NCBI GenBank assembly: GCA_937894565.1
Contig: CALBHK010000397.1
Coordinates: 1 to 51,363, forward strand
Length of the DNA: 51,363 nucleotides
Source of the DNA: an uncultured Chlamydiae bacterium
GTDB lineage: Bacteria; Chlamydiota; Chlamydiia; Chlamydiales; CALBHK01
Reading direction: 5' to 3'
Part shown: positions 1 to 24,886 of the stretch, in pieces
Position numbering within the stretch: the stretch's first letter is position 1
Layout of the letters: each line of letters opens with the position of its first letter
Position numbers and translations under genes: made by a program
The notes under the pieces: model-generated
Told to the model about the DNA's origin: nothing
Seen by the model: only the letters and a program-made list of their open reading frames with translations
Database searches by the model: none

Positions 1-62
1 GGGAGTCAGAGAGGGCTGCGTAAGAAAAATTTTGCCAACACTTTTGTTTACACCCTTTTATT

Positions 63-506
63 CTATTGAACTGAGGCTGCCGCGGATTTTTCTTTCATTT
101 TTAAATCATAGCTTATGACTTTATTGTCTATTTGTTCCGGTGCTAGCCCGGACATTAAAGCATGTTCGTTTAAGCAAGCTTGATAATTGGGATCAGCGTT
201 ATTCTTTAAAGTGGCAAGTGTTTCTAGGTTAGCAGGGGGGATTGCAACATCTGTGTGAGAGTTAATGAATCCTTTTACAGCTTGCCAAGTGACTAATGTT
301 CTATGGGGAACAATGGGTGTATAAAAAGGATCCATCCCTTCCACAGAAACTAAAACTTTAGTTGATTCGATGTGATGCAAAATGTTGGGTGATCCATCCG
401 TGTGAACGATTTCTAACGATCCGTAGCATTTCGCATCGAAATCAAACGAGATCTGCTTGCCAGGGTAAATGCTTTTAAAAAATTCTTTGGCTTCATAGTA
501 GTTCAT
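63..506 (-). CDS. Hypothetical phage protein (147 aa), last gene of the fibre cassette
   Basis: Track ORF 63-623 trimmed to the ATG at 504-506. That ATG is preceded by AGGAGA (reverse complement of 511-516) and starts just after the stop of the upstream gene (517-519). No family recognised. Confidence 0.55.
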   Translation of the reverse strand: MNYYEAKEFFKSIYPGKQISFDFDAKCYGSLEIVHTDGSPNILHHIESTKVLVSVEGMDPFYTPIVPHRTLVTWQAVKGFINSHTDVAIPPANLETLATLKNNADPNYQACLNEHALMSGLAPEQIDNKVISYDLKMKEKSAAASVQ

Positions 507-516
507 TTTTTTTCTC

Positions 517-1191
517 CTAAATAAAATAGCCTGTTGAAAATTGGTAACCGCCATTGTTGGTAACACTGTCTTGAGTAGTAATTCCTGCTCCATAAGCATA
601 TGCACGATAAACTGTAGAGGCAATTTGCGCTTGAATATTCGATACGTAGAAAGTGCCTACATTTCTATAGGCACCTGCCACTATTTGGCCAACTCCTAAT
701 CCATCATTTCTGACAGTGAAGGGGAGTCCTCCGATATTCACAATGCCTGTTCCTGTGTTAGTTTGCGTAGATGAGTTATAAACTATGTGGCATACATTTC
801 CCATTCTTTGATAATAGCCAAATTGGAAAAAATACACTCCAGAACCAGCTGTGGTTGCTCCAGTCAAAGTCGGAGTGAATGTGCCTTCTGAAAAAGTTGA
901 CAGAACGTTCGTTCCTGAATTAAAGGATATCCCAGAAAACCAAATATTTCCTGTGGATGGATCAGCCGTTAAAACAGTGGATCCAGAAGATGGGTCTATT
1001 GTTCCACTTGCTGCGTGAGTAATCTTTAATCGATTTGAATCACTAAAATCGACACCCATTGAATACGAACGTGTTGTCCCTATGGATAGTTGATACCAAA
1101 CATCACTAGAAACTGTCGGTTGAGTGACTGTTGCTGAATTGATGATTTTAGCTTTATATAGCGTATTGTTATCAGAATTATTGATCGCCAT
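517..1191 (-). CDS. Tail fibre / receptor-binding-like protein
   Basis: 224 aa. The N-terminal MAINNS tag is shared with four upstream genes. Gly/Ser/Thr-rich beta-type sequence (GTFTPTLTG...GYYQRMGNVCHIVY). Sits at the distal end of the tail operon. Confidence 0.55.
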   Translation of the reverse strand: MAINNSDNNTLYKAKIINSATVTQPTVSSDVWYQLSIGTTRSYSMGVDFSDSNRLKITHAASGTIDPSSGSTVLTADPSTGNIWFSGISFNSGTNVLSTFSEGTFTPTLTGATTAGSGVYFFQFGYYQRMGNVCHIVYNSSTQTNTGTGIVNIGGLPFTVRNDGLGVGQIVAGAYRNVGTFYVSNIQAQIASTVYRAYAYGAGITTQDSVTNNGGYQFSTGYFI

Positions 1192-1378
1192 GTGTTTACC
1201 TCAATAAAGCCCGTAAACTTCAAATTTAGGGCGGCTAGCTTTACCAGACATTTTCTTGGATGTCTGGGTGTCTGGATGTTTGGAATTCCAACTATCTGGA
1301 TTCCTGGTTTCCCAACCATCAGATTATCAACGTTTACTTCACGTTGAAAGTCACAGGAAAACATATTTTAATCCGATT

Positions 1379-2281
1379 TTAAAAAAATTCATACACCCAA
1401 ATTTCACCGCGAGCCCCATTTCCTGCAGCAGCTCCATTGCTGACACTATCAGTTCCTCCTCCGCCACCGCCTCCACCCCCACCAGGTGTTCCTCCCGTTC
1501 CTCCAGGAGCAGGCGCCGCTCCACCACCACCACCTGTTCCTGTACAAAATACGCCGCCAGAAGTAATAGATGTATTTGGAGTTCCGTTTCCGCCATTTTG
1601 AACAATATTAACAACCCCTCCAGACCCACCATTTGAGATGACAGATGGCGAAGCCGCCCATGTTCTTATATTTCCTCCGCGACCTCCATTAAAGCGAGTA
1701 TTTCCCGTATTCAATCCTCCGCCACCTCCAGCACCCCCACCTCCTAGGCAAGAGCCTAATCCAGTAGCGTTAGGCGAGTCCTCACCATTATTCGCAGCCC
1801 CCACGGCTCCACTTCCTCCAGCTCCAGCAACTTGAACAGCATAAAAATTGCTGAGAACATATGGAGCACCTCCTCCAGATCCACCCCCTCCATTTAATCC
1901 TCCACCTCCGAATGAGCTGATACTTGGACTATAAGTGAAAATGTTTCCAAAAGAAGTGATTCCTGCAGCTGACCCATTATTTCCATTTGTACTATTTGTT
2001 GTTTGTGTTGAGCCTCCATTTCCACCAGCTCCAATAGTCACAGTTTGAGTGACTCCTAGCGAAGAGGCATCGCATTGATAAATGAACATACCAGAGCAAC
2101 TACCACCGCCACCGCCACCGACGTTTGTTCCAGAAGCTCCTCTTCGTCCTCCACCGCCTCCGCCTCCACCACCCCAGCCAACAATCAAAGCAGAAGTCGT
2201 TCTAGAATCTTTAGTCCAAGATCCTGAAGCGGTGAATTTGGTTATTTTTGAACTTTTATTTATAGAATTATTGACTGCCAT
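1379..2281 (-). CDS. Glycine-rich fibre-cassette protein, paralog A
   Basis: 300 aa, ATG with GAGG upstream. N-terminus is MAVNNSINKSSKITKFTASGSWTKD, followed by WG(9) and further Gly runs up to 10 residues. C-terminal GEIWVYEFF is conserved in paralogs B and C. Resembles the glycine-rich domain proteins seen in phage fibre loci. Confidence 0.75.
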   Translation of the reverse strand: MAVNNSINKSSKITKFTASGSWTKDSRTTSALIVGWGGGGGGGGGRRGASGTNVGGGGGGSCSGMFIYQCDASSLGVTQTVTIGAGGNGGSTQTTNSTNGNNGSAAGITSFGNIFTYSPSISSFGGGGLNGGGGSGGGAPYVLSNFYAVQVAGAGGSGAVGAANNGEDSPNATGLGSCLGGGGAGGGGGLNTGNTRFNGGRGGNIRTWAASPSVISNGGSGGVVNIVQNGGNGTPNTSITSGGVFCTGTGGGGGAAPAPGGTGGTPGGGGGGGGGGTDSVSNGAAAGNGARGEIWVYEFF

Positions 2282-2307
2282 ATCTAAACCTCAATGGATC
2301 CATATAA

Positions 2308-3183
2308 TTAGAAATGTTCAACGATTATTATTTTACCAGCAGACCCTGTGCCACCTGCTCCTGAATTGGCTTGCGCGGATATTCCACCACCACCTCCGCC
2401 ACCAGCACCTCCAGGATTACCTCCATTTCCACCAGTTCCTCCTGTCGCTCCAGCTTTCGCTCCTCCGCCACCACCGCCAGCCGAACCACCGCAAACCAGC
2501 CCTCCGCTAGTAACGGCAGTATTGCCATCTCCACCATTTATGGTACCTGTTTCTATGCCTGCGGTTCCACCAGCTATATAAGTTACGCCATTTGAATTAT
2601 TAATTGCCCCGCCAGCTCCTCCAGATCTTGCAGTAACAGTATCGCCACCACCGCCGCCACCACCCCCTGTAGGTGAAAAAGTAATTACTGCTGCTGGGGC
2701 ATCTCCTGCGGTATTTCTTCCAGAGCCACCTGGATTAGTTACAACAGAGGCAATAGCATATGAAGTGTTTAATCCTCCCCCGACACCATTGATGCCAGAT
2801 GAAGTTGTGCCACCTTGACCAGCAGCTCCACCAACAGCTATCATGTTTCCAAATGTCGTATTACCTCCTGTAGTTCCATTATTACCGTTTGTTGCATTCA
2901 CTGTTTGGGCTACCGCCCCACCAGCGCTAGCTCCTATTGTATAAGACTCTGTGGATCCAAAAAATGAAGAAGGGGCAGCAAAATATCCTGAGCCTCCTGA
3001 ACCGCCGCCACCGCCTCCTGAAGATGAAGCACTAGTTCCTTTTCTTCCGGAAGCTCCACCACCACCGCCTCCCCATAAAAATACTTCTATCCACTGCGTA
3101 CGAGCATCCTTTGTCCATGTGCCAGAACTAGAAGTATAGGTAGTGACTTTAATTGAACCGTTTATACTGTTATGTGTAACCAC
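2308..3183 (-). CDS. Glycine-rich fibre-cassette protein, paralog B
   Basis: 291 aa. GTG start at 3181-3183 preceded by GGGAGGA. N-terminus MVTHNSINGSIKVTTYTSSSGTWTKD, C-terminus GKIIIVEHF. Same architecture as paralogs A and C. Confidence 0.7.
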   Translation of the reverse strand: MVTHNSINGSIKVTTYTSSSGTWTKDARTQWIEVFLWGGGGGGASGRKGTSASSSGGGGGGSGGSGYFAAPSSFFGSTESYTIGASAGGAVAQTVNATNGNNGTTGGNTTFGNMIAVGGAAGQGGTTSSGINGVGGGLNTSYAIASVVTNPGGSGRNTAGDAPAAVITFSPTGGGGGGGGDTVTARSGGAGGAINNSNGVTYIAGGTAGIETGTINGGDGNTAVTSGGLVCGGSAGGGGGGAKAGATGGTGGNGGNPGGAGGGGGGGISAQANSGAGGTGSAGKIIIVEHF

Positions 3184-3199
3184 ATGGATTCCTCCCTAA

Positions 3200-3499
3200 T
3201 TAGAATGGCTCTAACTCTCCTTCTAAATTTATAGATAAAATACTTGCTCCTAACCGTGCTTTAGCCTCGTTATAAGCAGCTTCTCTCTCAGCTTTGCTAA
3301 TATCATCCTCCGGTGGTTTCATAATAGAAAGAGGTCTTACATAATCTTGTAAGTCTTCCATCCAAATATCACCCATTCCAGCTTCATGGGTTTCTTTTAC
3401 TGAGTAACCTGCTGGAGGCTGCCATTCAGTCACTCCATCCCACATAATGACGTTGGAAACCCGATTATTTTGATCTATGACTGCATATCTACTGCTCAT
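3200..3499 (-). CDS. Small phage protein, possible fibre chaperone/assembly factor
   Basis: 99 aa, wedged between Gly-rich paralogs B and C. The N-terminal pattern (YAVIDQNNRVSNVIMWDG..W.PP.GY) resembles small proteins common in phage fibre regions. Function is inferred from position only. Confidence 0.45.
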   Translation of the reverse strand: MSSRYAVIDQNNRVSNVIMWDGVTEWQPPAGYSVKETHEAGMGDIWMEDLQDYVRPLSIMKPPEDDISKAEREAAYNEAKARLGASILSINLEGELEPF

Positions 3500-3508
3500 A
3501 ATTTCTCC

Positions 3509-4384
3509 TTAAAAATATTCAAAAACCCACAATTCACCGCGTCCGCCATCTCCACCTTTTCCAGAGTTAAATCCGTTAATTGAAACACCACCTCCTGCAC
3601 CACCGCCTGATGGGGATCCACCAGATCCTCCTGCACCACCTACCGACCCAGAACTAGATCCACCACCACCTCCTCCAGTACCTCCAATAATATAGTATGA
3701 CGAACTAGCTGCGTTGTTTCCTGCACCACCACCGATGCCAGCCGCTCCCGCTGTTCCGCCTGCCAATAAAACAGATGAATTTATATGCAATATGTCCCCA
3801 CCTTTTCCACCCCCAAATGTTGTATTTGTGTTGGTAGTGCCACCACCACTTCCACCACAAGTTCCGGCGTAAATCATAGTTTTATTTTGACCAGCAACAC
3901 CTGCTGCTCCCACTCCCCCTAATTGGCCGTCATTTGCGATGGTCACAGGAGAACCATAAACGACAGATAATTTAGCCGTACCAGCAAATCCTTGACCGCC
4001 TGCTTGTCCACCAAATCCTCGACCCCCACCAAAGACCTGGAAAGAACCAATAGAAGTTGTTCCTCCATCTCCACCTGCATTTCCCTGTGTTGAATCAACC
4101 GTAATTGATGGTCCACCTGTACCACCTGCGCCAATAGTTACAGTTTCAACAGCTGCTAAACGAGAGGCTTCCATTGTCTGAATAATAAATGGCCCCCCAG
4201 CTCCGGAACCACCACCACTTTTTGAATTTGTCCCAGAAACACCTCTTGGACCACTTCCACCACCACCTCCGCCACCCCACCCAATCAAAGTAACTATTTT
4301 AGTGCGTGGATCTTTAGTCCAAGTTCCTGAAGATGTAAACTTGGTTAGTTTGCTGGTATTATTGATCGAATTTTGCGTTGCCAT
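3509..4384 (-). CDS. Glycine-rich fibre-cassette protein, paralog C
   Basis: 291 aa. N-terminus MATQNSINNTSKLTKFTSSGTWTKD, C-terminus GELWVFEYF. Collinear with paralogs A and B. Confidence 0.75.
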   Translation of the reverse strand: MATQNSINNTSKLTKFTSSGTWTKDPRTKIVTLIGWGGGGGGGSGPRGVSGTNSKSGGGSGAGGPFIIQTMEASRLAAVETVTIGAGGTGGPSITVDSTQGNAGGDGGTTSIGSFQVFGGGRGFGGQAGGQGFAGTAKLSVVYGSPVTIANDGQLGGVGAAGVAGQNKTMIYAGTCGGSGGGTTNTNTTFGGGKGGDILHINSSVLLAGGTAGAAGIGGGAGNNAASSSYYIIGGTGGGGGGSSSGSVGGAGGSGGSPSGGGAGGGVSINGFNSGKGGDGGRGELWVFEYF

Positions 4385-4408
4385 TCATTCTCATTAAGGA
4401 AGTTTTAA

Positions 4409-5077
4409 TTAGACAACGGTTAAGTTTCCGACTGCGCTTAAAACTCTCCATGTATTATTAGCAACCACGCATAGACACTCTAAAGCATCTCCAGCGTCTG
4501 TCGAAGCTAGGCTTCCTCCAACTCCAGCAGTTGTTGCCACATTTCCAAATTTAACTGTTTGGGATGCATTTTGTGCCAATAACCAACCGCCTGCACCATT
4601 TCCGGCAATCCTGAAAACGGTTCCTTGTGCTGCTGTGGCTGGGAGAGTTAAAGTGCATAAAGAGGCATTATCTGCTATATAGCCGGTATTAACAGCGATT
4701 GCTTGAGAAGTGCCGGTTACATCTACCCATGAAGAAACGCCGCCACTGCCACCAGAGGAGGCAGCCCATTTAACACCTGAAGTCTGAGAAGAATCGGCTG
4801 TCAAAACAAAATTGTCTGTTCCAACTGTCAGAGGGGTGAATGTACCTGCTCCTGTGCCAACAAGGACAACTCCTTTCGCAGTGTAGTCAGCAAAGCCTAT
4901 TAAGGTATCTGCTGCTCTGTTTGGAAATGTATAGGTGCCTGCTCCTGCAAATCCTTGTGTAAAGGTCATATCGCCTGAGCCATTAAATGTTGCGGTCCTT
5001 TTTGTAGTACCGCCGCCAAGACTAAATCCAACCGATAGATTAGAGATATCTAGGTTAACTGATGAATTTTGAGCCAT
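4409..5077 (-). CDS. Tail fibre-like protein
   Basis: 222 aa, AGAGG RBS, N-terminal MAQNSSVN tag. The motif [37 protein letters not shown] matches a conserved fibre motif (G..L..G....L..G..G.VL......G..W) seen in many phage fibres. Confidence 0.6.
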
Positions 5078-5273
5078 TTTCTTGCCTCTTGTTAATTTTT
5101 AAACGAAACTCATATCGAGTTGTTTTCACCGTTCTGGTGATATTACAAATTGATTTCTGACAATATTTGAGTCTTTGAATATATGAGTTTCTGTCTAAAT
5201 TTTTTGAGCTGTCAAAATAGGCTACCTTCGAAGTAAAAATTAACGCTGAGAAGTATAGAGCCCAATATTCCGT

Positions 5274-5639
5274 TCATTTTTTAGAGCTGATTTGTTTTAA
5301 TTTTTGTTTTGGTTTGTTATTTATTTTTGGCGCTTCCAGGAGTTTGACTTCTTGGGCGATGTATTGCTGGCTTTGAGTAATCAATTGGCTCAGTGAGCTT
5401 TCAATAATAAGAAATTTATTTCTCATTTCTTCTATTGCTTGCTGAAGTGCAAATATGCGATTGACTTCGGTTTGTTGCTGGAGGAGTAATCTTTTAGGAG
5501 CGCAATCTTTAATGACTTTTGGTTGACCCTGCCCATTTTCTTGCCACCAGGACTCCAGATAATTGGGACAATCTTTTTCCGAAGAACATAGTTTTGCCTT
5601 TACGAAAGGACAATTTTCACCGCATGAAGTGCATTCCAT
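5274..5639 (-). CDS. Cys-rich N-terminus plus coiled-coil protein, unknown function
   Basis: 121 aa. Six Cys in the first 46 residues (CTSCGENCPFVKAKLCSSEKDC...DC), then a Q/L-rich heptad-like region and a Lys-rich tail. Embedded in the fibre module. Confidence 0.5.
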   Translation of the reverse strand: MECTSCGENCPFVKAKLCSSEKDCPNYLESWWQENGQGQPKVIKDCAPKRLLLQQQTEVNRIFALQQAIEEMRNKFLIIESSLSQLITQSQQYIAQEVKLLEAPKINNKPKQKLKQISSKK

Positions 5640-5655
5640 TGAGTTACCTATTTAG

Positions 5656-6270
5656 TTAAGCTTGTTTTTGACATAAAATTCCTACGACTGCCAATGGCCT
5701 CCAAGTGGCTCCATGATTGTGGGGCTGAGAAGCTCCTATTGCATTTGAAGAACTATTCATCCCTTCTGTTGTTCCTTGTCTTGGTCGTTGATTTTTGGCT
5801 CCGTGGGCATAATGTGAACTTGTATTGCTTTGATCAGAACCAAAGAAATACTGGTGAGTATGGTTGGGGATTTGATTAATGGTTAGGCCGACACCAGGCT
5901 GCTGCCAAGTTCCTGCTACAGTATTACCTGCTGGTCCGTAAAGACCGCCTCGAAGAGCTAAAACGCAATCCCCCAAAAAGTTGATTGGCAGCCATCCATC
6001 TGGAGCAACGTTTTGATAAAACCAGCATAAGGTTCCTGCTGGAAAACCAACCTGATCAAATCTAATCTGATAGTTGCTTGTAGCGCGCCTTATCATAAAA
6101 AGATCGCTCGCTACAGCTGATCCATTAGGTAATGTTGGGAAGAGAGAAATATCAATCGTTCGAACTTTATCAATGGTCACTTGTTTATCGGTTAATCCCT
6201 GGCGAATGATCGTTGTATCCCCATCATCTGCAACCGAAGCGACTGGTAAACCTGGAATCTGTACTGACAT
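5656..6270 (-). CDS. Tail fibre protein with phage tail-collar-type domain
   Basis: Track ORF trimmed to the ATG at 6268-6270, which has an AAGGAG RBS and follows the upstream stop at 6279-6281. Motifs FPAGTLCWF...APDGWLP...LTINQIPNHTHQY...QPHNH resemble the tail-collar (MdpB-like) domain. Confidence 0.65.
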   Translation of the reverse strand: MSVQIPGLPVASVADDGDTTIIRQGLTDKQVTIDKVRTIDISLFPTLPNGSAVASDLFMIRRATSNYQIRFDQVGFPAGTLCWFYQNVAPDGWLPINFLGDCVLALRGGLYGPAGNTVAGTWQQPGVGLTINQIPNHTHQYFFGSDQSNTSSHYAHGAKNQRPRQGTTEGMNSSSNAIGASQPHNHGATWRPLAVVGILCQKQA

Positions 6271-6278
6271 AAATCTCC

Positions 6279-6761
6279 TTAAGGTGTTGGGTACGTTTTT
6301 GTCTGGCCCCAAACAAGAATATCTGTAGCTGTACCGCCATTAACGATTTGATTTCCTGCCAAAGTTCCTGCCCCAAGAGTCAATGTATTATTCGAAACGA
6401 CTGTCAAAGTAGGTGCTAATCCTGGTTTTTTTGCTCCAACGGCAAAAATGTATCGAGTGGGGTTGGCTAAATCTACGGCGGTTAGAGTGATCAAAGTTCC
6501 GGCAGTTCCGTCATAAGGGAAAAGACCTACGCCGTTTCCATCGGTCAAAATAGCTAATTCCTCTTGCTGTTTTAAGAAGGCCAGCCAGCGATTTGTGTAT
6601 CTTCCCAACCAATTGAACCAATTTCGAGGTGGAAATTCTAAACGAGCCCAACCTTCTAATTTTTTTTCAGTAGGCGGTTCAAGAACGTTGTTTTGCCCTG
6701 ATATTGGATCTACAACATCATTTTCTGCCCATTCAGGTAAAATTGTAGGTTTAAGCACCAT
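6279..6761 (-). CDS. Tail fibre protein (conserved fibre N-terminal domain)
   Basis: 160 aa, AAGGAG RBS. PEWAENDVVDP....PP.EKKLEGW...EFPPRNWFNW is the widespread fibre N-terminal motif (P.W......P...K...GW....PP...NW). Confidence 0.6.
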   Translation of the reverse strand: MVLKPTILPEWAENDVVDPISGQNNVLEPPTEKKLEGWARLEFPPRNWFNWLGRYTNRWLAFLKQQEELAILTDGNGVGLFPYDGTAGTLITLTAVDLANPTRYIFAVGAKKPGLAPTLTVVSNNTLTLGAGTLAGNQIVNGGTATDILVWGQTKTYPTP

Positions 6762-6771
6762 TGTTAACTCC

Positions 6772-7527
6772 TTAAGGTATTGGCGGCTGCGAGCCGTTAA
6801 ACATGATGACTTCGGCTAATTGTCCAGCCCCTGTCGTATCAATTGGGGTTCCAAATTCGGCAAAGCCTCCTCCAAAAGTTGGATTTGTTACTCTGCCTGC
6901 TTGCACAGCTAGAAGATCGCCTGTATTAATTTCTAAATTTTCCAAATCAAATGGATTAGCTTCATTAGGTGCGACAAGAAGTAGATCTTCGACGGGGTCC
7001 CCGCTAAAAACAAAAGGAAGCGGAACATTGTAAGTTGCAGTAATGGGAGTGTATTGAACGCCTGCTGGACTGACAGATTGAATAGCAGTAACAAGTTGGT
7101 CTGGAGGATTTGGAAATACCAGACCATCAGTGGACATTTGAAAAGCTGCGGGATAATATTCATGGTAACGGATTTTATTCGCTTTTGTGAGGAATTTGAG
7201 AACGGTAATGACTTCTTCAGGCGTGCCATTTGCCTTATTTATAAAAATTTGAAACTTCAGTCTTTCTCTGTAATCTTCATCGGATTCATTTGGTAAACGC
7301 GCGAGACCAAGAATTTCACCAAGTCCATCCAACTGCGCTCCAATTGAGGTTTCCAAGGAGCGTTGAAATTTTAAGTCTTGATCGACATTGTCTATTTCTT
7401 GCATTGACTTGACAAAGGCGCGAATAAACCTTTGAAAACGGCTATATTCTCCATCAACGAGACTTTGCTGAAATTGACCTGCTAAAAGGGCAATGGCTCT
7501 TTGAACGTGATTGGCTATTCTAACCAT
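6772..7527 (-). CDS. Baseplate protein, DUF2612-like (gpI-type wedge/fibre adaptor)
   Basis: 251 aa. Motifs GAQLDGLGEILGLARLPNESDEDYRERLKFQIFINKANGTPEEV resemble DUF2612 baseplate proteins. Lies directly downstream of the J-like gene. Confidence 0.55.
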   Translation of the reverse strand: MVRIANHVQRAIALLAGQFQQSLVDGEYSRFQRFIRAFVKSMQEIDNVDQDLKFQRSLETSIGAQLDGLGEILGLARLPNESDEDYRERLKFQIFINKANGTPEEVITVLKFLTKANKIRYHEYYPAAFQMSTDGLVFPNPPDQLVTAIQSVSPAGVQYTPITATYNVPLPFVFSGDPVEDLLLVAPNEANPFDLENLEINTGDLLAVQAGRVTNPTFGGGFAEFGTPIDTTGAGQLAEVIMFNGSQPPIP

Positions 7528-7585
7528 GTCACCCCCTCAAACAGTAGGGTCAACCATTTTGTTGGCGTCAGCATAATGGTTGTTA

Positions 7586-9574
7586 TCATACTGTCACCGT
7601 GATTCTTGTTAGATCAAAGACGGAGATTTCATTTTCTGCGATGACGATATCTGCTGTACCAAATAGGGGAGTATCCCCTGGTTCATTCGTGGATGCAATT
7701 TGCATCACGCCGCTAGCGATTCCGGGAACACTAAAAATTTGAGCAAGGACGCGTTGCAATAGAACGTCTATGCCTATGCCTAAAGTAGATCCATAGGTGT
7801 TAATGGCTGCTGCCACTAAGTCTTGACCATTTGGAGGAAATACTTCCTCAGCATATAGGGTTAAGGTAACCGTAACCCAAATGTAGATTGGAGTGGGGCG
7901 GCTAAAATTGATGACTTGGAATTCGCCTTGTGAGTCGGTGATGGTAAACGCAGTATTCCCGAATGTTTGGATACCTGCTGGTTTCGTGGTCCAGATTTTA
8001 TTTGCGACGTCAGCATCAGTGCCTCCTTGTACGACAGCTTCAAAACTTTTTGGAACTCTTCCGCCTTTAATAACCGCCGTCGCTTGTGAAGCCCCTCCGC
8101 TGACGGTGAAATCATTGGGGATCATTGTTACTTCGATAGCGGTTGCCATATCCATAGTGATGGTTCTATTGGCTGTCCCTCCAACGCTTGCAGTAACAAC
8201 TTCAGGCTGATTTTGAATCAAAGCAGCAATTACGCTCATGGTAGCCAAATGAGAAGTCGCAAAGGTGACGGTTGGCAAAGTCGTACCATTTAAAACGACG
8301 ACTATGGTGTTGCCTGTGACCAAATCTTGATTTAATACGATCAAAATTGGTTCTTGAGTCAAGGTACTATTTTCGAAAACTAAAGCAGATATTACTCCAG
8401 GTACTTGCTGAAGCAATCTTGCTCTTATAGATTCAACTGTTCCAGCTCCCAAGAGTCGAAGCGAATTGTTTCGACGTATTCTTAATTCCGCATCCGTTTC
8501 AATGAAACGACCTGTCACTCCAGCTTTAAGATTATTTATTGATATCCAACCTGAAATAGGAGTGAGGATTTCGGTCAATGTATTGACAGGGGCAGCGATT
8601 GGACCAAAATCTTGGGATAGAAAAACAACAGGAGTAGATTGGGCAGTGATGCTTAAATTAGTTCCAACAGCGATGGAAAAGGGAACGTCTGACTCATCGG
8701 CATTGATGGTTATAGTTCCATCCATATTATCTATGGCCGTCACAGGTTGAACCCCAGCATTGACTACGGAAGCAAGGGCTGCTGTTAATGCGTTATTTGA
8801 TGCTGGGATTTGATAAGTAATTGCATAAGTAGGTTGGCTTGCTCCGCCTGTGATCACGATTGAATTGACTATGGCATTGAATCCAACATTTGGAATGATG
8901 GTGATAATATTTGGATTTGTTGGTGTTGCAGAAAGAACGGCAGGGGAAGTGGAAATCTGCGCAGCTAATAGAGCCAAAGTCGTGTTGTTATTCGTAGTAA
9001 AAGGAACCGCTGCTAATTGAACTCCATTGATGGTGGCAACTATTGAATTTGAAGTAACAAAACTCCCTGTAAAAGTGACGATAGGCAGCGAATATGAAAA
9101 GGCTTGATTGTTGATTAGAGCCGTATAAATTTGAGCTGCCAAAGCGCTAACCTGAATAGTTGCGGATGCTGCCTGTGTTCTTGTAATAATCGTGTTTTGT
9201 TGAGCAAAGAAAACAGCTCCGGTATCGGGGATTCTAGCGAGGGCTCCTTGATTGATAAGAGTGCCATCTAATCCAGCGCAGACGCCTATAACTCTAGTTT
9301 GTTGAGCGGCAAGTCGAGTGATGCCATTTAATTGAACGACGTTATCGAGGCTGATCCCTTCCGCGAAGTTGGGATATTGGCTGAAATAAACATCCTCCAT
9401 ATTTTCCCAAAGATCGGCTAATACTTTTGAAAATACTCCGATTTGCTGGCCAAATATAGATTGCGGATCTAAGTTGATATCGCCAAATTCTGCGAGCAGC
9501 TGATTTTCTAAATCAGTTTGAATATCGACTAATCGTTTAGCTTTAAATCCCTGAGCGGTTAAACCAAATGTCAT
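7586..9574 (-). CDS. Baseplate J-like wedge protein with inserted repeat modules
   Basis: 662 aa with an ATGA overlap to the upstream W-like gene. The N-terminal and C-terminal parts look J/gp6-like. The middle carries two copies of the module also found in the sheath and the capsid-associated protein. Confidence 0.7.
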   Translation of the reverse strand: MTFGLTAQGFKAKRLVDIQTDLENQLLAEFGDINLDPQSIFGQQIGVFSKVLADLWENMEDVYFSQYPNFAEGISLDNVVQLNGITRLAAQQTRVIGVCAGLDGTLINQGALARIPDTGAVFFAQQNTIITRTQAASATIQVSALAAQIYTALINNQAFSYSLPIVTFTGSFVTSNSIVATINGVQLAAVPFTTNNNTTLALLAAQISTSPAVLSATPTNPNIITIIPNVGFNAIVNSIVITGGASQPTYAITYQIPASNNALTAALASVVNAGVQPVTAIDNMDGTITINADESDVPFSIAVGTNLSITAQSTPVVFLSQDFGPIAAPVNTLTEILTPISGWISINNLKAGVTGRFIETDAELRIRRNNSLRLLGAGTVESIRARLLQQVPGVISALVFENSTLTQEPILIVLNQDLVTGNTIVVVLNGTTLPTVTFATSHLATMSVIAALIQNQPEVVTASVGGTANRTITMDMATAIEVTMIPNDFTVSGGASQATAVIKGGRVPKSFEAVVQGGTDADVANKIWTTKPAGIQTFGNTAFTITDSQGEFQVINFSRPTPIYIWVTVTLTLYAEEVFPPNGQDLVAAAINTYGSTLGIGIDVLLQRVLAQIFSVPGIASGVMQIASTNEPGDTPLFGTADIVIAENEISVFDLTRITVTV

Positions 9575-9933
9575 GTTAGTAATTCCTGCGTTATTGTGAT
9601 CTGCCCTTGGACAGTGTCCACAGAGAAAGTCACGGAATAAATACGCCGTGTATCGTCAAAATTACTTGTGAAACTGAGAATTTGGTTTACACCTCGAGTA
9701 GAAAGAATCTCTTGCTTGAGAACGCTTTCCATTCGAATTTGATTGGGGGATTTGATGAAAAAATCTTGATAATAGGAAACGCCTGCAGTGATATCTAAGA
9801 ACCATTCTCCCAAAATAAAGCGCAAGCGAATGGCTAGATTTTGAGCGATCTGGTCTTGATCCTCAACGAATTGCAAGTCAAAATCTTGTAAGAGTAAATC
9901 GCCAGTTGTTGTGTCTAGCGCTATATCTTTCAT
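9571..9933 (-). CDS. Small baseplate wedge protein (gpW/gp25- or XkdS-like)
   Basis: 120 aa. Pattern D..TGDL....D...V...DQIAQNL.IRL.F.LGEWFLD...G, plus its position immediately upstream of J. Confidence 0.5.
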   Translation of the reverse strand: MKDIALDTTTGDLLLQDFDLQFVEDQDQIAQNLAIRLRFILGEWFLDITAGVSYYQDFFIKSPNQIRMESVLKQEILSTRGVNQILSFTSNFDDTRRIYSVTFSVDTVQGQITITQELLT

Positions 9934-10020
9934 GAAGCCTCGTTAACTCAAAAACGTTTCCTAATACGTTTACAGATGGGTATTTGAGTTAATTAAGGCT
10001 ATTGGATACTTGAGTAGTTT

Positions 10021-10671
10021 TTAAGGGATTGTACCCTTAAGAGCATCTATAGATGCTTTCAATGAGGCATATGTCGGCACAGTGCCTTGGAATATTGGGT
10101 TTCCAACTGCGGTTGTCACCGAGGTTGTCAAGATTCCTAGTATTTTACTGACAATATCGAGAACTTCTGTAGAGCTGTTCCCGATCGCCACTTTACCAGC
10201 AGTTTCAATTTGAATGTCACCACTTTCTTTGATTCTTATATTAGAGCTTTTATAAGTTAAAAGCACGTCCGAGTTGTTCTCAGCTAAAGAATTTTCTGTA
10301 AAAGGAAAAAGCCCCATGATCGCAACAGCATCGGATAGGTCGAATTTCCTTGGATCGTTGGGTGCTACATTGCCTCCTACTGATTTCCAAAGATCTGTAC
10401 TCCTTTCAATAAACAAAAGCAAGCAGGTGTCGCCTTGAACAACTGGAAAAGTCAAACTAGCACCGCCTGCTTTTGGAAAAATTACTGGGACATTACTTAA
10501 AATAGGCAAATCCAATGTTGTCCCATCTAAATAACTCTTTTTCAAAGCCGGTTGGATTTCAGCTTTTTGCTTCGTATAGTCATAGGAAACGATGACTCCT
10601 GGCAAAGCGGTATGGACATCATAAAGCTGAAATTGAATTGCTTGTCTTAAAGCATCAGTGATCGTCGTCAT
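10021..10671 (-). CDS. Baseplate central spike/hub protein (Gp138-N / gpV-like)
   Basis: 216 aa. LYDVHTALPGVIVSYDY..QKAEIQPALK...DG....LP.L.NVPV.FP.AGG..LTFPV..GD.CLL.F.ERS.D.W matches the Gp138 N-terminal/gpV-type fold signature as I recall it. Confidence 0.6.
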   Translation of the reverse strand: MTTITDALRQAIQFQLYDVHTALPGVIVSYDYTKQKAEIQPALKKSYLDGTTLDLPILSNVPVIFPKAGGASLTFPVVQGDTCLLLFIERSTDLWKSVGGNVAPNDPRKFDLSDAVAIMGLFPFTENSLAENNSDVLLTYKSSNIRIKESGDIQIETAGKVAIGNSSTEVLDIVSKILGILTTSVTTAVGNPIFQGTVPTYASLKASIDALKGTIP

Positions 10672-10889
10672 TCTTCATCACCCTGTGCTATTGTTAAACA
10701 ATCAAGGAGTCCATCCCGGACTTTAGACAAAGCCCAACCTAATTCTTCTAAGCCGTCATCGTTATTTAAATAATGATTTACAAACCGATCCCTTTTATAT
10801 CGATCGCCCCAACCACAAAATTCAATATTTAGTAACTGGTCGAGCTTTTCTCTTATTCTTCCTAAATCTTCTAAACGTTCTGCTTTCAT
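10668..10889 (-). CDS. Small hypothetical baseplate-module protein
   Basis: Track ORF trimmed to the ATG at 10887-10889, which forms an ATGA overlap with the upstream stop. It overlaps the downstream start by ATGA as well, so translational coupling on both sides supports coding. Confidence 0.5.
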   Translation of the reverse strand: MKAERLEDLGRIREKLDQLLNIEFCGWGDRYKRDRFVNHYLNNDDGLEELGWALSKVRDGLLDCLTIAQGDEE

Positions 10890-11749
10890 ACTAAAATCAC
10901 TTCCATTATTGATCGCCAATTTGGACCGAATAAATCTCCCTCATGCTTTATAGAAAATACCGCATAAGGTCCATTAAGTCCGATTCTTTCAGATTTGATA
11001 TTGAGCCTATCACCAGGGAGAATATCAGGGCGAAGAGTGGTTTGAACGATATATCCAGTTCGCGGGCCATCCAGATATACAGCCGCTCTCTTATCTGTAT
11101 AGCGCTGAGGAATTCCGATCATGCCAGTGTCGGCATTGATTTCTATGGCTGGTTTTGAAGTGGTTCCATATTGAGGGATGATTTGAAGCTTTCCATTTTG
11201 AACGCTCCATCTTAGACCGAGTCTTAAAACTGCTTTGTCTAGGGCATTTTTACCCATTCCAGCATATTCGAACCCTTGCTCATAAACAACATTGTCAGTA
11301 GCAGTAAACTCAGAAATAGATAGCCCAAGTTGATCGGCGATCGTTTGGACAACCTGACGGACTGGGACCTTTTCCTTGAAGCTAACGGTAATAGATTTCT
11401 GGTTAAGAATTTTTTCTCCGTCTCCGCAATCAAGTGTAGTGACGATTTCTGGCTGATCATAGGCATGGCTGACTTGGGTGGTATTACCAATGAAAAGCAA
11501 TTGTTCGCCCGCGTCTTCTCGATACCCGGCGGATAAGATAACTTGGTCTCCATAATCTTTGATCCTGTTCCTATTTTCTTGACTGAGGTTCCAAATTTTT
11601 ACAGATGCTGTATTGGTTGACCAGCTCAAATTCTTCTGAATAGAAAAGGAAATGCGAAGAGCTGAAAGCTTAATTGTTCCAATATAGCCATTGAAAGTAT
11701 TGTTTCTCAATCCAACTTCTACGGATGCTATTCGATCAAATCTGGCCAT
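10886..11749 (-). CDS. Baseplate hub / tail-tip protein (gp27-, gpD- or XkdQ-like)
   Basis: 287 aa. Positioned between the tape-measure-proximal proteins and the spike. Family assignment is by position and size only. Confidence 0.45.
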   Translation of the reverse strand: MARFDRIASVEVGLRNNTFNGYIGTIKLSALRISFSIQKNLSWSTNTASVKIWNLSQENRNRIKDYGDQVILSAGYREDAGEQLLFIGNTTQVSHAYDQPEIVTTLDCGDGEKILNQKSITVSFKEKVPVRQVVQTIADQLGLSISEFTATDNVVYEQGFEYAGMGKNALDKAVLRLGLRWSVQNGKLQIIPQYGTTSKPAIEINADTGMIGIPQRYTDKRAAVYLDGPRTGYIVQTTLRPDILPGDRLNIKSERIGLNGPYAVFSIKHEGDLFGPNWRSIMEVILV

Positions 11750-12070
11750 TTAAGCGAACTCCCCGAGAGAATAATAGATGAGTTCAGTAACCTCGCCCAT
11801 GTCTAGACGTTGAATTTTTCCTTCTCCTCCAATGATGTTTTGGCAAACGATATCTCCTGTGGGTTTGCCATCATTGACATATTGAGAGGTTAAGTTATAG
11901 TTAGCGACGACTTTTATCCCAAGGATGATGGGAACTAAATCGCGAGTTAGAATGTCCATGACCCAGTATTCATTCATTGCGTTCCATCTAAAAGATAAAA
12001 CAAATGTTTGATTAGCCAATTCAATTTGTTCTTGCCATTGGGCGGGTTCTTTAAAAGGAATAATTTGCAT
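11750..12070 (-). CDS. Small baseplate plug-like protein
   Basis: 106 aa. The motif F.LSFRWNAMNEYWVMDI......PII.GIKVV resembles small baseplate plug proteins of Pam3-like myoviruses, from recollection. Confidence 0.4.
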   Translation of the reverse strand: MQIIPFKEPAQWQEQIELANQTFVLSFRWNAMNEYWVMDILTRDLVPIILGIKVVANYNLTSQYVNDGKPTGDIVCQNIIGGEGKIQRLDMGEVTELIYYSLGEFA

Positions 12071-12714
12071 TACACCACCCCTAAGATTAAATTTTTGCTG
12101 GATAATACGTTAGGGAGAATCGTGGGTTGCACAGAGATCAAGGATTGAACGCCTACATTAATCCCGCTTGAGGCCTGATCTTTTAGACTATTGACAGGAT
12201 CATTTTGAATAAGGGGATAATTGGCGTTGGACGCCACAATGTCTCGAGGAATTTTGTTTTGCACTCCACCGAAAACATTTCCTTGATCAAGTTGCAATCT
12301 AACGCTTGTATCTATGATGAGCCTTTGTAATTCGATGGTAAAAGTTAAAGACTGCCCTGTCTTTATATCTCTGGGTACATCTAAAACAGTAATAGCCATG
12401 TTTTGATACACTTTTAAACCTGTGACCACGGTCACAGGCAACCTTGATTGATGAAGGGCGATGAGACGGTTAAATGCATCAATTGAGCGATTAAAAGGGG
12501 CAAAAATACTCAGTGGAGTATCTGAAACAAGGCCGACCAACACTAAAACGTCGGGTTCGTTGATAATATGATCCGATATGATTGTGCCATCTTCAATCGG
12601 ATAGTTTGTTACGCGCGAAGAGAAGCGATGTTCTTCCCGAATGGTAACATCTAGATCGATTGACCCAACTTTTGGGCTAGGATATTTTTTTCCAAATAGC
12701 AGAGATAAAACCAT
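12070..12714 (-). CDS. Dit-like / tail-tube-initiator protein
   Basis: 214 aa. HRFSSRVTNYPIEDGTIISDHIINEPDVLVLVGLVSD resembles the Dit-like phage tail protein N-terminal signature. Lies immediately after the tape measure. Confidence 0.45.
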   Translation of the reverse strand: MVLSLLFGKKYPSPKVGSIDLDVTIREEHRFSSRVTNYPIEDGTIISDHIINEPDVLVLVGLVSDTPLSIFAPFNRSIDAFNRLIALHQSRLPVTVVTGLKVYQNMAITVLDVPRDIKTGQSLTFTIELQRLIIDTSVRLQLDQGNVFGGVQNKIPRDIVASNANYPLIQNDPVNSLKDQASSGINVGVQSLISVQPTILPNVLSSKNLILGVV

Positions 12715-13820
12715 TACTCCACCTGAGGATTGTTGTTATAGATTTCCCTAATCTTATCTATGAAAGCATTGTCAAAAGCTTCATCGAAAGACTGGCGAAT
12801 AGCGATTTGCTGCTGATCAGTCGTTCCTGCAGGAATCTGCATATCGACTTTAGTATTGATATTGAAATTGGCTGGAAGCTTGCCTTGTTTTTGTTGTTCT
12901 ACTAAGGCATTGAAAAAGAAAGCGTCTTCTTCGTCAACTTTCCTTTTAACCATATTAAGAGTTTCACCGCCGAATAATTTGGCAACTTCTTCGGTTATCG
13001 CATCCGCAATAAACGAAAATCCACCCTTAATTCCTTCTGTGGAAAAGACATCTGCAATCACTCCAAAGCCTTTAAAAGCATCTCCATTTAAAATCTGGGT
13101 GAATATTCCAAGCGCTTCAGTGATGGCAGGCAAGAGCTTAACTACGAAAACCTCTGTCAGTTGTGTCAGCTGATTTTTAAAAACCGCTAGATTTCGAGAA
13201 TATTGGCTTAGACTTGGGATTCCATCTTTCAAGGCCTTAGCATATTCGGTATGTTTTTCTGTCAGCAATCCAATGCTATCGCCGGCTGCCTTGGCGAAAT
13301 CTATATATTTTTGGGCGTCTTTTTCACCGAAGAAAGCGACAGCAACCTTTAATTTATCTCGATCATTGCTGAGAGTATTAATGTGCTTGAGGATGTCGAT
13401 AAATAATTGATTGGCATTCTTCAATTCACCAGTGAAATTATCTCTAATTTCTATCCCTGTGTAATAAGCGATTTCTTGAAGCTGTCCCATTCCCCATTGA
13501 GCATCTTGAAGCATTTTATTCAAACCGGAAATGGCAGCATCAAAATTGCTTGGATCAATTCTAAATTCTTCGGCAGCCTTTCTTAACTTGATAAATTCTT
13601 CGAATGAAATGCCAATACTCTTAGCGAGATCATTGGCATCCAATGTGGCATTTGCAATGTCATTGAAAAAGTCTAGGGTTTTAGCAACGAATGCAGTTGC
13701 AGCTGTTGCTGCAATAGCAAATTTTGTTTTAAACCCTATGATTGTACGATTAAATTGCTCAACGCCTCTTTGATCGACTTGAAAGCCTAATCTAGTGACT
13801 AATTCTCTAACGACTGTCAT
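12714..13820 (-). CDS. Tail tape measure protein (short, 368 aa)
   Basis: Helical, Ala/Lys/Glu-rich sequence. Lies directly downstream of the frameshifted chaperone pair, the conserved location of tape measure genes. Confidence 0.7.
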   Translation of the reverse strand: MTVVRELVTRLGFQVDQRGVEQFNRTIIGFKTKFAIAATAATAFVAKTLDFFNDIANATLDANDLAKSIGISFEEFIKLRKAAEEFRIDPSNFDAAISGLNKMLQDAQWGMGQLQEIAYYTGIEIRDNFTGELKNANQLFIDILKHINTLSNDRDKLKVAVAFFGEKDAQKYIDFAKAAGDSIGLLTEKHTEYAKALKDGIPSLSQYSRNLAVFKNQLTQLTEVFVVKLLPAITEALGIFTQILNGDAFKGFGVIADVFSTEGIKGGFSFIADAITEEVAKLFGGETLNMVKRKVDEEDAFFFNALVEQQKQGKLPANFNINTKVDMQIPAGTTDQQQIAIRQSFDEAFDNAFIDKIREIYNNNPQVE

Positions 13821-14453
13821 TTCTTCGACCTTTCCTTTTAGATTCTTCCATCAGGTCGAGTCGCATATCCAGCAAGGCATTTGCCCTCAACAGATCATCT
13901 AGATTCCATGTGCGCTCGATTTCCTCTAAAGAGGCTATTCCTTCTAATACTAACCGCCAGAGAAGGAACTCATCTTTTAATTCCGTATGGAGGTTTTTCT
14001 CGTATCTGGCTGACGATTCTGCGGCATCGGTGTTGCTTCCTTGAATAGGCCTCCAATACCGCTCTCCCCAAAAAAAGAACCGAAATTGCAATCTACCACG
14101 AAGGCCAAGACCTGCATCAAAGTAGGTAGATCACCTGCAAATTCAACATCTATTACAGAATCGGTTAATTCCATTCCCTCTTTTCTGACTCCTTGGCATA
14201 GCTCAAGGACTAAACTTTCAAATGTTTTGTCATCCAATTGGGACATTAAAGATTCAATAGCTTTGACAGCTTCTCCTTTTGAAAAAGGAAGCCCAGCCAT
14301 GCTTTGATCTTTGCCTCCAGGAAGGAATAATTGAGCCAAAGCAGGTCCAAAGATACGCAAAAGCTTTGCCTTCATTCTTAAAGCTCTTCTAGCGGGTAAC
14401 TGAGTACAGGTATAAACCGATCCATTGATTTGTTTTTCTCGTGTTTCAATCAT
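13807..14453 (-). CDS. Tail assembly chaperone frameshift product (gpGT-like, about 215 aa)
   Basis: A -1 slip on T TTT TTT (minus strand, 14076-14070) after ..NFGSFF continues as WGERYWRPIQ... in the open -1 frame down to the stop at 13807-13809. This is the conserved G/GT arrangement of tailed phages. Confidence 0.6.
13977..14453 (-). CDS. Tail assembly chaperone (gpG-like, zero-frame product)
   Basis: 158 aa between the tube and tape measure genes. Overlapped in the -1 frame by ORF 13807-14091, with a slippery heptamer in the overlap. Confidence 0.7.
   Translation of the reverse strand: MIETREKQINGSVYTCTQLPARRALRMKAKLLRIFGPALAQLFLPGGKDQSMAGLPFSKGEAVKAIESLMSQLDDKTFESLVLELCQGVRKEGMELTDSVIDVEFAGDLPTLMQVLAFVVDCNFGSFFGESGIGGLFKEATPMPQNRQPDTRKTSIRN
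14070..14076 (-). promoter_or_regulatory. Programmed -1 ribosomal frameshift slippery site (UUUUUUU followed by GGGG)
   Basis: The plus strand shows A7 at 14070-14076 preceded by CCCC (14066-14069). In the zero frame the site reads tcT TTT TTT ggg. The frame relation of the two ORFs (start coordinates mod 3 of 2 versus 0 on the minus strand) equals -1. Confidence 0.6.
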
Positions 14454-14887
14454 TAGACGTTTACTCCATTGCTACCAACGAAGACGTCCAGATCAACTAG
14501 ATCAAGAACCCAATCGCGATTAGCTAAATCTTTACCGAATTCAGAAGATGGATATTTCTTCACCCAGCCAGTAGCACTGAAATAAAGGGAATTTCCGCTC
14601 AAGTCTTTGATTAAGATCGGGACAACTCCGGCATTGGTTAATTCATCAATGTTAGCGAAGCCTGAAAGTACGTCGTTACTTGGACTCGATTGCTTTAAGG
14701 TGAGCGTCATATTTCCAGAGCGATTGTTACTTTTGATACGCGTGCTTGTACCATCCGCGCCAGTAACCTTCGCCCATTGATCGTCATCTCTATCAACTGT
14801 TAAAAAAGTTCCATCAGCGAAGCCGCTCATAGGAATCCCGCCTACTGTAATAATGACCTGCTTAGGGTCATAAGTTCTTACTGACAT
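14453..14887 (-). CDS. Tail tube protein (DUF3277-like)
   Basis: 144 aa directly downstream of the sheath. Pattern Y....VIITVGG..MSGFADGTF..V.......G..T..LKQSSPSN. Confidence 0.65.
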   Translation of the reverse strand: MSVRTYDPKQVIITVGGIPMSGFADGTFLTVDRDDDQWAKVTGADGTSTRIKSNNRSGNMTLTLKQSSPSNDVLSGFANIDELTNAGVVPILIKDLSGNSLYFSATGWVKKYPSSEFGKDLANRDWVLDLVDLDVFVGSNGVNV

Positions 14888-14904
14888 AATTATCTCCTAA
14901 GTAT

Positions 14905-17316
<2,412 letters not shown>

Positions 17317-23084: not shown

Positions 23085-24542
23085 TTATACCGGTGAGCGA
23101 TATCTGATTCCTGTAGGCATAAAATCAGGTCCAATGCCTGGAGGAGGTGTTTCCTGTGCTTTTTTCTCTTCTTCTAATTCAGCCACTTCTTCTGGATCAA
23201 AACCGTTTTTACGTCCTTCAAGATCCACTTCAGTATTCATAGACCAACGGTTGCCACCGAAACGAGAAACAGCCACCTCAGCAGGATCAAGAACTCCTCT
23301 GTCGAGATAAATGGCGTCTGTTTCTGCGACGATTTTTCTGACGATGGCTTCTTGTTCTTCGGTGTTCTGCCATAGGGGGACAAATTTGATGGACCAGTTG
23401 TCTGGTTCGTCGCCAGCGAATGGTCCATTTTTTGAGAGCATGATGTAGCGAGTGAGCTTTTCAAGGACTGGTTTAAGCTTGGATTCCTGCTCCTGCTTAA
23501 CCATATCGTAAAAATTTCTGACATCGTTATCTCCAGTGGAGTTCATGCCGGCGGAGCTTCTTCCGAAGAGGAGGGATACTGGAATGCCAGAGACCGCAGA
23601 TAGAGCCAGCATAAAACGATCGAGAAGCTCAGGGATGCCTGAGATATTTGTTGAGGCCTTTTCATATTTCTCCGCCGCATCCAATATCATCGTATTGGTT
23701 GCACCTTTGGTTAAATTAAGAATGTCAAGCCGTTTCATGACTTGATTGTCAGCGCATTGTGAAGAGATTAATTCCGCGAGATTGGGAATAGAAAGAGTGT
23801 AATTGACGAAATCCTGCATGATAAGCCCTGCATTAGCAAAGGCCGTGGAATAATTGCGAAGTTCATCGTAGATTGACTGAATAAGGGGATCACCCCAGCC
23901 ATTATTGAAATTTTGCTGCCTTGGAGGCAGTATAGACCAATCTACACGTAGAATTCTTGAGTGATGTACATAGAATAGAGCTCCTGTACGAGTGTCATTG
24001 ACCGTATAGACATTTGGATAGCCATAATTCGGGCTATTCAGATCCTTTTCGAAAGTGCCGTCTCTGCTGAAAGATTGATAGCGATCAAATACATGAAGCC
24101 ATTTTATATCCCTAATATTTCGCTCGTCGACAGGTTCTTCAAGAGGTAAGCCATCGGCAATTCCCATCACACAAAGAGCGCCTCCATACTGTCTGGCCCA
24201 TCGAAGCAGAGTGATCAAATTGAAGTTAGCTTTGAGGGATTCCATTTTGCGATTAATGTCTTGTCCTGAATCTCCCTCGATTTCCCACCCTTGTCTGACC
24301 ATTTCGGATGGCACAATATCCATGATTCGTCGGGTGATCCCGTCAGATCTATACAATTGATCCAGTTCCGCTTGTTCGAATATTTTCTCCAGGCGAAAGT
24401 GAGCATTGACGTTTTTATCGCGTCCTCGCATGCCTAGCCCAGTCAGGACATTGATCCATCCATCGGCCTTGACAAATCCATCATTATGAGGAACGCGACT
24501 CTGTTCTTCAGCGGATTTTTTCTCAAAATTATACGTAGCCAT
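23085..24542 (-). CDS. Portal protein (DUF1073-like)
   Basis: Start trimmed to the ATG at 24540-24542, preceded by GGGAG (the track start at 24566 is TTG). About 485 aa. First gene of the morphogenesis operon, upstream of the Mu F-like gene. Confidence 0.7.
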   Translation of the reverse strand: MATYNFEKKSAEEQSRVPHNDGFVKADGWINVLTGLGMRGRDKNVNAHFRLEKIFEQAELDQLYRSDGITRRIMDIVPSEMVRQGWEIEGDSGQDINRKMESLKANFNLITLLRWARQYGGALCVMGIADGLPLEEPVDERNIRDIKWLHVFDRYQSFSRDGTFEKDLNSPNYGYPNVYTVNDTRTGALFYVHHSRILRVDWSILPPRQQNFNNGWGDPLIQSIYDELRNYSTAFANAGLIMQDFVNYTLSIPNLAELISSQCADNQVMKRLDILNLTKGATNTMILDAAEKYEKASTNISGIPELLDRFMLALSAVSGIPVSLLFGRSSAGMNSTGDNDVRNFYDMVKQEQESKLKPVLEKLTRYIMLSKNGPFAGDEPDNWSIKFVPLWQNTEEQEAIVRKIVAETDAIYLDRGVLDPAEVAVSRFGGNRWSMNTEVDLEGRKNGFDPEEVAELEEEKKAQETPPPGIGPDFMPTGIRYRSPV

Positions 24543-24850: not shown

Positions 24851-24886
24851 ACTGTTTCCTGATACTTTTTTTATACTCTAGAAGGC

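Follow-up and report, generated by a model that had tools for sequence, protein, structure and literature searches.

A short N-terminal peptide shared by unrelated fibre-type proteins of an E217/Pam3-like phage element, and its possible role in docking

Why should proteins with different bodies begin with the same few residues? This question is raised by a contig of 51,363 nucleotides filed under an uncultured Chlamydiae bacterium (CALBHK010000397.1 of assembly GCA_937894565.1; the whole stretch is called the window below), in which five genes of a phage fibre cassette encode proteins with closely similar N-termini. A sequence-only reading of the locus had proposed that this N-terminal tag docks different distal proteins onto one common adaptor. 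Our analysis leads us to think it probable that the octapeptide, with the consensus M-A-x-(N/Q)-N-(S/A)-(I/V)-N, is the docking peptide of receptor binders of the virion. As for the structure that receives it, we can offer a tentative candidate only, namely the C-terminal tip domain of the first protein of the array, which is suggested by gene order and co-distribution.

The octapeptide and the proteins that carry it

The open reading frame (ORF) listing and the sequence itself confirmed five tagged ORFs on the minus strand. In the order of the array, they are 4409-5077 (N-terminus MAQNSSVN; 222 residues, called tag222 here), 3509-4384 (MATQNSINN), 2308-3183 (MVTHNSING, with a GTG start), 1379-2281 (MAVNNSINK) and 517-1191 (MAINNSDNN; 224 residues, called tag224). 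Read directly from the sequence, the octapeptide of tag222 is encoded by positions 5054-5077, and the equivalent 24-nt tags of the other four genes lie at 4361-4384, 3160-3183, 2258-2281 and 1168-1191, all on the minus strand. Among the 80 window ORFs of at least 90 residues, five begin with the pattern M[AV]xx[NS]S[IVD]N, while composition predicts 0.001, so that the shared tag stands far above chance. The inner tetrapeptide [NS]S[IVD]N occurs five times in the 18,307 residues of these ORFs, and all five occurrences are the tagged N-termini. Moreover, the codons for Ser6 (TCT, TCT, AGT, TCG and TCA) come from both the TCN and the AGY families, and this mixture indicates that selection acts on the peptide.

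Beyond residue 10, BLASTP links only a trio of glycine-rich proteins (3509-4384, 2308-3183 and 1379-2281) among the five. Because these three are paralogues, the tag precedes three independent bodies in the window, not five. [quoted passage not shown] The earlier claim of at least three unrelated C-terminal types is thus borne out. Its description of the genes as consecutive has to be corrected, since an untagged ORF of 99 residues (3200-3499) sits between the second and third tagged genes; the same small gene, which is chaperone-like, was left out of its count of seven fibre-type genes.

To see how far the tag extends, a degenerate DNA pattern for MATNNAIN was searched in viral contigs (IMG/VR) and in 596 Gb of cellular genomes. 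The viral contigs gave 80 sites in 67 contigs. Every one of the 80 is an ORF start, and the complete ORFs run from 155 to 748 residues. The identical octapeptide is written there in 61 distinct 24-mers, and every synonymous position varies. The cellular genomes yielded 13 pattern matches, of which 10 are chance short ORFs and three are real, all three on contigs of metagenome-assembled genomes; the tag is essentially absent from cellular genomes. The C-termini of the tagged proteins include the tip domain (38), C1q/TNF-like heads (21), glycine-rich heads (about 45) and at least 20 other types. These types were taken from C-terminal clustering, as single-linkage of whole tagged bodies merged them into one component via common domains, and the same body domains are also found untagged on longer fibres. 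Tagged genes occur next to the tail terminator and tube genes of a siphophage-like genome, and also in phages of about 35-40 kb. The tag is real and modular, standing on unrelated bodies of fibre type in the window and in hundreds of further phages, as the sequence-only reading had supposed for the window. Its strings were not found in any paper of the searchable literature, and it has apparently not been described so far.

In some viral loci (L073:703-2630, and L157, L173 and L153 downstream of 3300), three or four tagged proteins with lengths of about 155-220 residues and FSGY(L/M)I-type endings are encoded in tandem; by sequence pattern these proteins resemble C1q/TNF-like heads.

Glycine-rich heads and the conserved first member

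The glycine-rich trio allowed us to compare the tagged proteins with a fibre of known structure. Against the Pfam family Gly_rich_2 (PF21722, cut-off 24.3 bits), 3509-4384 scores 26.7 bits and 2308-3183 scores 25.1 bits. The third head, 1379-2281, reaches 19.0 bits and falls under the cut-off, yet it aligns with the other two and is clearly their paralogue. The AlphaFold2 model of 3509-4384 (predicted local distance difference test, pLDDT, 84; predicted template modelling score, pTM, 0.85) shows a TNF-like domain from about residue 10, with the first strand at residue 11 and residues 1-5 below pLDDT 50. In Foldseek, this model matched the Bxb1 tail tip (9d93_Q, E 3.4e-10), the Pam3 fibre (7ypx, E 4.2e-6; also 7yfw) and the glycine-rich domain of ALK, so it has the TNF-like plus glycine-rich fold of Pam3 gp24-type heads. 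Pam3 gp24, the only fibre of that phage, docks by an N-terminal helical bundle and is joined to the wedge by disulfides. No such alpha-helical baseplate-docking domain is present in the model of 3509-4384, where no helix is predicted before the first strand. Taken together, the match to the Pam3 fibre fold, the first strand at residue 11 and the lack of a preceding helix lead us to read the glycine-rich window proteins as head-only versions of Pam3 gp24, with the 8-residue tag in the place of the docking helices. Apart from the tag, model and Foldseek matches reveal no attachment module in these heads. Many glycine-rich homologues begin with the tag, and others have quite different N-termini. 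With a glycine-rich protein as the query, tblastn against cultured phages (INPHARED) gave no match, and a PDB sequence search returned nothing useful.

The untagged 99-residue ORF (3200-3499, minus strand) follows the first head directly. Its sole profile match is to phrog_14370, a family of unknown function, over residues 1-48, and a Pfam search with E values up to 0.1 gave none. Homologues occur in 15 loci outside this lineage, and wherever coordinates were compared, they come directly after a tagged glycine-rich gene. In Pam3, the fibre gene gp24 is likewise followed by the chaperone gene gp25 (PMC9608196), and the position of 3200-3499 parallels this order. From its gene position, the 99-residue protein is probably a Tfa/gp25-like assembly chaperone of the glycine-rich heads.

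The other protein that deserves close description is tag222 (4409-5077, minus strand), which opens the array. In 25 related IMG/VR loci, a conserved block encoding the wedge, a stub of 155-160 residues, the collar and a Cys-rich protein is followed by a hypervariable array that always starts with a tag222 orthologue, behind which stand from one to about nine further tagged genes (165-693 residues). Those further genes come and go among the relatives. tag222 itself is 92-93% identical where the wedge is 91-92% identical, and so is as conserved as the baseplate proteins. We found 793 homologues with a conserved N-terminus, and even distant relatives sharing only the C-terminal domain likewise start MATNNAVN or MATQNSIN. 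Among cultured phages (INPHARED), its sole match is Microcoleus phage My-WqHQDG (OR578706.1, L031:7840-9282). The matching hypothetical protein of that phage has 481 residues, starts MAVQNNYNNT in a way that resembles the divergent tag of tag224, and ends in the tip domain.

The AlphaFold2 model of tag222 (pLDDT 81 overall) comprises an N-terminal beta-strand region and a C-terminal beta-sandwich tip domain of about 105 residues, whose pLDDT is about 96. By its profile hidden Markov model (HMM), this domain covers 4412-4744 on the minus strand and ends in W-x-V-x-S-x-x-G-N-L-T-V-V; tag222 is the only window ORF that the HMM matches. The domain has no Pfam match and, with the tag222 profile as the query, no PDB sequence match. 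Foldseek matched the tag222 model to the N-terminal region of CBA120 TSP4 (E 2.6e-6, TM 0.39) and also to CpaA (6o38), these being matches without a residue-level structural alignment. The size of the domain, its about 10 strands and the joint matches to TSP4-N and CpaA point to XD1, not to XD2 or XD3. A reading as a "T4 gp10-like branching domain", which the TSP4-N match might suggest, was rejected, since it is probably XD1 that the match covers. In 120 full-length matches from the loci the domain is C-terminal, and nearly all of the best 150 representatives, proteins of 153 to 1,406 residues, have it at their extreme C-terminus; at 50% identity it defines 7,248 clusters. The GN(L/I)T(V/I)V sandwich is thus a very common, unannotated fibre-tip domain.

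What the tag may bind

Gene order gives some guidance on the partner of the octapeptide. Upstream of a tagged gene stands either a further tagged gene or the gene of a fibre that ends in the tip domain (44 of 74 by a strict regular expression, more by HMM). A tagged ORF comes next after 58 of 98 domain-bearing ORFs, compared with 52 of 997 other ORFs. At least 59 of the 67 tag-selected loci, or their contigs, hold the tip domain, and in 47 of 67 domain-selected loci a tagged gene lies no more than 3 kb away, in every case on the same strand. The tag therefore nearly always occurs with the domain, but the domain does not always occur with the tag, an asymmetry that is expected if the tag depends on the domain. 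In six loci the two genes overlap as GNLTVV*-TAATG-MATNNAIN, where the stop of the domain gene overlaps the ATG of the tagged gene. A 34-kb siphophage-like contig (L033:9239-12053) has a tail terminator (PF13554) fused to the tip domain at residues 156-249; this fusion is followed directly by a tagged tip-domain protein of 198 residues and a tagged protein of 64 residues, and then by a glycine-rich protein that lacks the tag. All of these are encoded between the terminator and tube genes.

On these grounds, we propose that a short N-terminal tag would attach interchangeable, mostly head-only receptor-binding proteins to a trimeric partner in the virion, giving the element, an E217/Pam3-like myophage type of about 70 kb, a multi-head adsorption apparatus. 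tag222 would be the hub, as it is always first in the array and conserved like the baseplate. Its C-terminal sandwich is the best available socket candidate for the tags of 3509-4384, 2308-3183, 1379-2281 and 517-1191, though we hold this assignment to be less likely than not, and less probable than docking itself. The variant tag of tag222 may in turn bind the collar or stub fibres upstream, and the 99-residue protein would serve the glycine-rich heads as a chaperone outside the virion.

Several points weigh against the tip domain as the socket. In about 30% of the domain-selected loci no tagged gene lies within 3 kb, and of the best 150 tip-domain representatives only about 5% are tagged. 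These figures, together with the 7,248 clusters, indicate that the domain clearly serves a function that does not depend on the tag, the simplest being that of a distal tip or receptor-binding domain. In the TSP4 paper, XD1 is taken for a spacer or a fold that binds glycans, and docking is assigned to XD2 and XD3. A natural "Rosetta stone" fusion of the tip domain with the tag that follows it was searched for, and none was found. tag222 is itself tagged, so a second partner must be postulated. Finally, the co-occurrence could reflect a common fibre toolkit in one phage supergroup, and the sampled loci are phylogenetically non-independent.

The sequence-only reading had looked for the adaptor upstream, with all five tagged proteins docking, alternatively or together, on the collar protein (5656-6270) or the fibre stub (6279-6761). 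The gene order of baseplate, stub, collar and array fits this proposal, PHROG matches give both proteins fibre-type N-termini, and they are the nearest structural candidates for the partner that the tag of tag222 needs. Nevertheless, we consider it unlikely that they receive all five tags. In the tag-bearing loci outside this phage lineage, no homologue of either protein occurs, though the tag consensus is the same there, and one relative (L029) keeps the stub, the collar and the Cys-rich gene while having neither tag222 nor any other tagged gene. The collar also evolves faster than tag222 (42-81% identity to relatives where tag222 has 63-93%), a behaviour that suits a receptor binder better than a conserved platform. 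It is a little less likely still that the tag is an intrinsic feature, such as the N-terminal cap or nucleus of a trimeric beta structure or an assembly-chaperone motif, and that any attachment occurs through other surfaces. In tag222 the tag does lead directly into predicted beta strands (residues 9-31), many longer tagged proteins continue with conserved linker modules of the type xP(I/F)P...GGTG or L..AG..YDGAGTF, and the glycine-rich heads are accompanied by a chaperone-like gene. However, the same octapeptide precedes more than 20 unrelated folds and so belongs to no single one, it is a low-confidence coil in both monomer models (tag222 and 3509-4384), and the chaperone-like gene goes with the glycine-rich class only.

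Two further explanations carry very little weight with us. One places the function of the conserved 5' end in the nucleic acid, as a translation-initiation signal or "downstream box" or as a recombination linker for cassette exchange, and regards the peptide as incidental. AAT-rich codons do come after a good ribosome-binding site, about 37 nt including that site are common to the starts of 1379-2281 and 517-1191, and the array is a clear hotspot of gene gain and loss. Yet the variation of all synonymous positions among the 61 viral 24-mers and the two Ser6 codon families of the window speak for the peptide, and a promoter and terminator scan found nothing above chance, so this account seems very improbable. 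The other treats the tag as a packaging or targeting signal. The capsid-targeting sequence of T4 marks unrelated internal proteins encoded in a hyperplastic region, and there is a formal likeness in that an N-terminal consensus of about 10 residues stands on unrelated proteins of a variable gene cluster. Here, however, the bodies are fibre heads and tips (Pam3 fibre, TNF/C1q-like and long-fibre tip domains), the tagged genes lie in the baseplate and fibre module, and neither a protease site nor a linkage to head genes was seen; of all the explanations weighed, this one appears the most remote.

Returning to the docking peptide, the consequences would be considerable. If the octapeptide has this function, it identifies in environmental phages a large group of receptor-binding proteins that had gone unannotated, every ORF that starts MAxNNxIN could be annotated as a head attached to the virion, and the carriage of two to 10 alternative heads would be explained. 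It would also offer a way to test ideas on host range in phages without a cultured host. A bolder proposal, for which our expectation is low, sees in the octapeptide and the always C-terminal GN(L/I)T(V/I)V sandwich a plug and a socket of universal use across phage morphotypes. If it were true, myophage baseplate fibres, the siphophage tail terminator and phages of about 38 kb would all chain or branch small heads on any fibre tip, and heads would be swapped over thousands of uncultured phage lineages with the tail left untouched.

Genomic setting and comparison with known systems

Positions 56-15077 of the window are 99.99% identical to a groundwater contig of 70,265 bp (L001), and the same DNA is present in groundwater, wastewater, sediment and drinking-water metagenomes. 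The neighbouring genes encode E217/Pam3-type sheath, tube, plug, hub and sheath-initiator proteins. Searching the INPHARED cultured phages with the first 8 kb of the window gave no nucleotide match. Upstream of the array, and like it on the minus strand, lie the baseplate wedge protein (6772-7527; DUF2612/P2 I-like by Pfam, PHROG and PDB sequence matches to wedge proteins), the 160-residue stub with a typical fibre N-terminus (6279-6761, PHROG tail-fibre N-terminal matches) and the 204-residue collar-type fibre protein (5656-6270, PHROG tail and tail-fibre matches). PDB sequence searches with the stub and the collar returned nothing useful. Between the collar gene and the array, a Cys-rich coiled-coil protein of 121 residues is encoded at 5274-5639 (minus strand); it is present in all relatives, including L029, where its homologue is followed by a small membrane protein. 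Seven Cys residues fall within its first 46 residues, ahead of the coiled coil, and it may merit attention in view of the disulfides that fix the Pam3 fibres.

At the far end of the array, tag224 (517-1191, minus strand) combines a divergent tag with an "EGTFTPTL...GLPFT" fibre-tip domain, and only seven homologues were found. Its C-terminal domain also ends longer untagged fibres (P0245-P0247), and a further protein with it (P0243) is tagged MAISNSLN. The next ORF, at 63-506 on the minus strand (147 residues, MNYYEAKEFF...), is called as a 147-residue gene on L001 as well. Its presence or absence among the relatives tracks that of tag224 (L009, L014 and L015 versus the others), and its product may be the assembly partner of tag224. 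Just downstream of this ORF, window positions 1-55 have no match to L001, which runs on with small ORFs, ParA and a primase-helicase, so a breakpoint or variant junction lies there.

Farther away, a cargo block occupies 24600-41900, between the portal gene (23085-24566) and TerL (41938-43287). It encodes an OEP, a CzcB/HlyD-like protein, an AcrB/CzcA-like RND pump, a P-type ATPase and an ATPase with an ArsR helix-turn-helix, and further a DDE transposase, an NTP transferase, a tyrosine integrase and AbiEii. Past TerL, 43700-50300 holds a methylase, a second AbiEii and a second OEP and HlyD pair. The cargo at this junction differs among independent contigs of the element (78,118 bp at about 11,000x coverage, 70,265 bp and 29,492 bp), which indicates that a myophage-like element with ParA, primase-helicase and integrase carries metal-type RND efflux operons. 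Elsewhere in the window, a segment ...(I/V)TFATSHLATM... is common to the cement protein (PF22758; 20028-20810) and a 662-residue baseplate protein (7586-9574), and this similarity suggests a common domain in a capsid decoration protein and a baseplate protein.

Among characterized phages, Pam3 offers the closest parallel to the heads themselves. Both have a TNF-like plus glycine-rich head with a small chaperone-like gene directly downstream, and the baseplates are related, as families of Pam3_gp18 and E217 occur on the same contig as the tagged array. They differ in that the tag replaces the helical domain here, and that three paralogous heads and two other tagged proteins stand in place of a single fibre. 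The gp37-gp38 pairs of T2, T6 and S16 resemble the present loci in another respect, because the gene directly downstream of a fibre encodes a small glycine-rich adhesin that would cap the tip of that fibre, and in some tagged loci both genes are translationally coupled. However, S16 gp38 attaches by three short helices (cited in PMC9608196) and not by a peptide tag, the capping proposed here is putative, and S16 gp38 was not among the Foldseek matches of the glycine-rich model.

[quoted passage not shown] Short N-terminal docking peptides on secondary RBPs are established in K1-5, G7C, KP32, KP34 and CBA120 (PMC6872550, PMC13352976); in K1-5, KP32 and G7C they are as short as 7 residues (PMC6872550), and they have been validated experimentally (PMC13352976). 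The architecture that the sequence-only reading expected from a shared N-terminal peptide thus has good precedent in K1-5, G7C, KP32 and CBA120, and where such systems have two or more RBP genes with divergent bodies behind one short conserved peptide, the window has five. In both cases unrelated bodies share the peptide, one conserved protein carries the platform (here the candidate is tag222), and bodies are exchanged horizontally (PMC6872550). On the other hand, the tag sequence is different, and the bodies are small head-only domains in place of tailspike depolymerases. For the platform, the candidate here is an XD1-like sandwich at the C-terminus, while theirs are N-proximal T4 gp10-like XD2/XD3 jellyrolls. 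The arrays here reach five to nine tagged genes, and the same tag occurs in myophage and siphophage contexts. If our proposal is correct, an 8-residue plug, possibly with a socket of about 105 residues, would extend the design principle of Klebsiella and E. coli phages to broader and simpler modules. We infer that the tag works like the known docking-peptide systems but differs from them in its sequence, in the size of the bodies, in the position and fold of the platform, and in its breadth over phage types.

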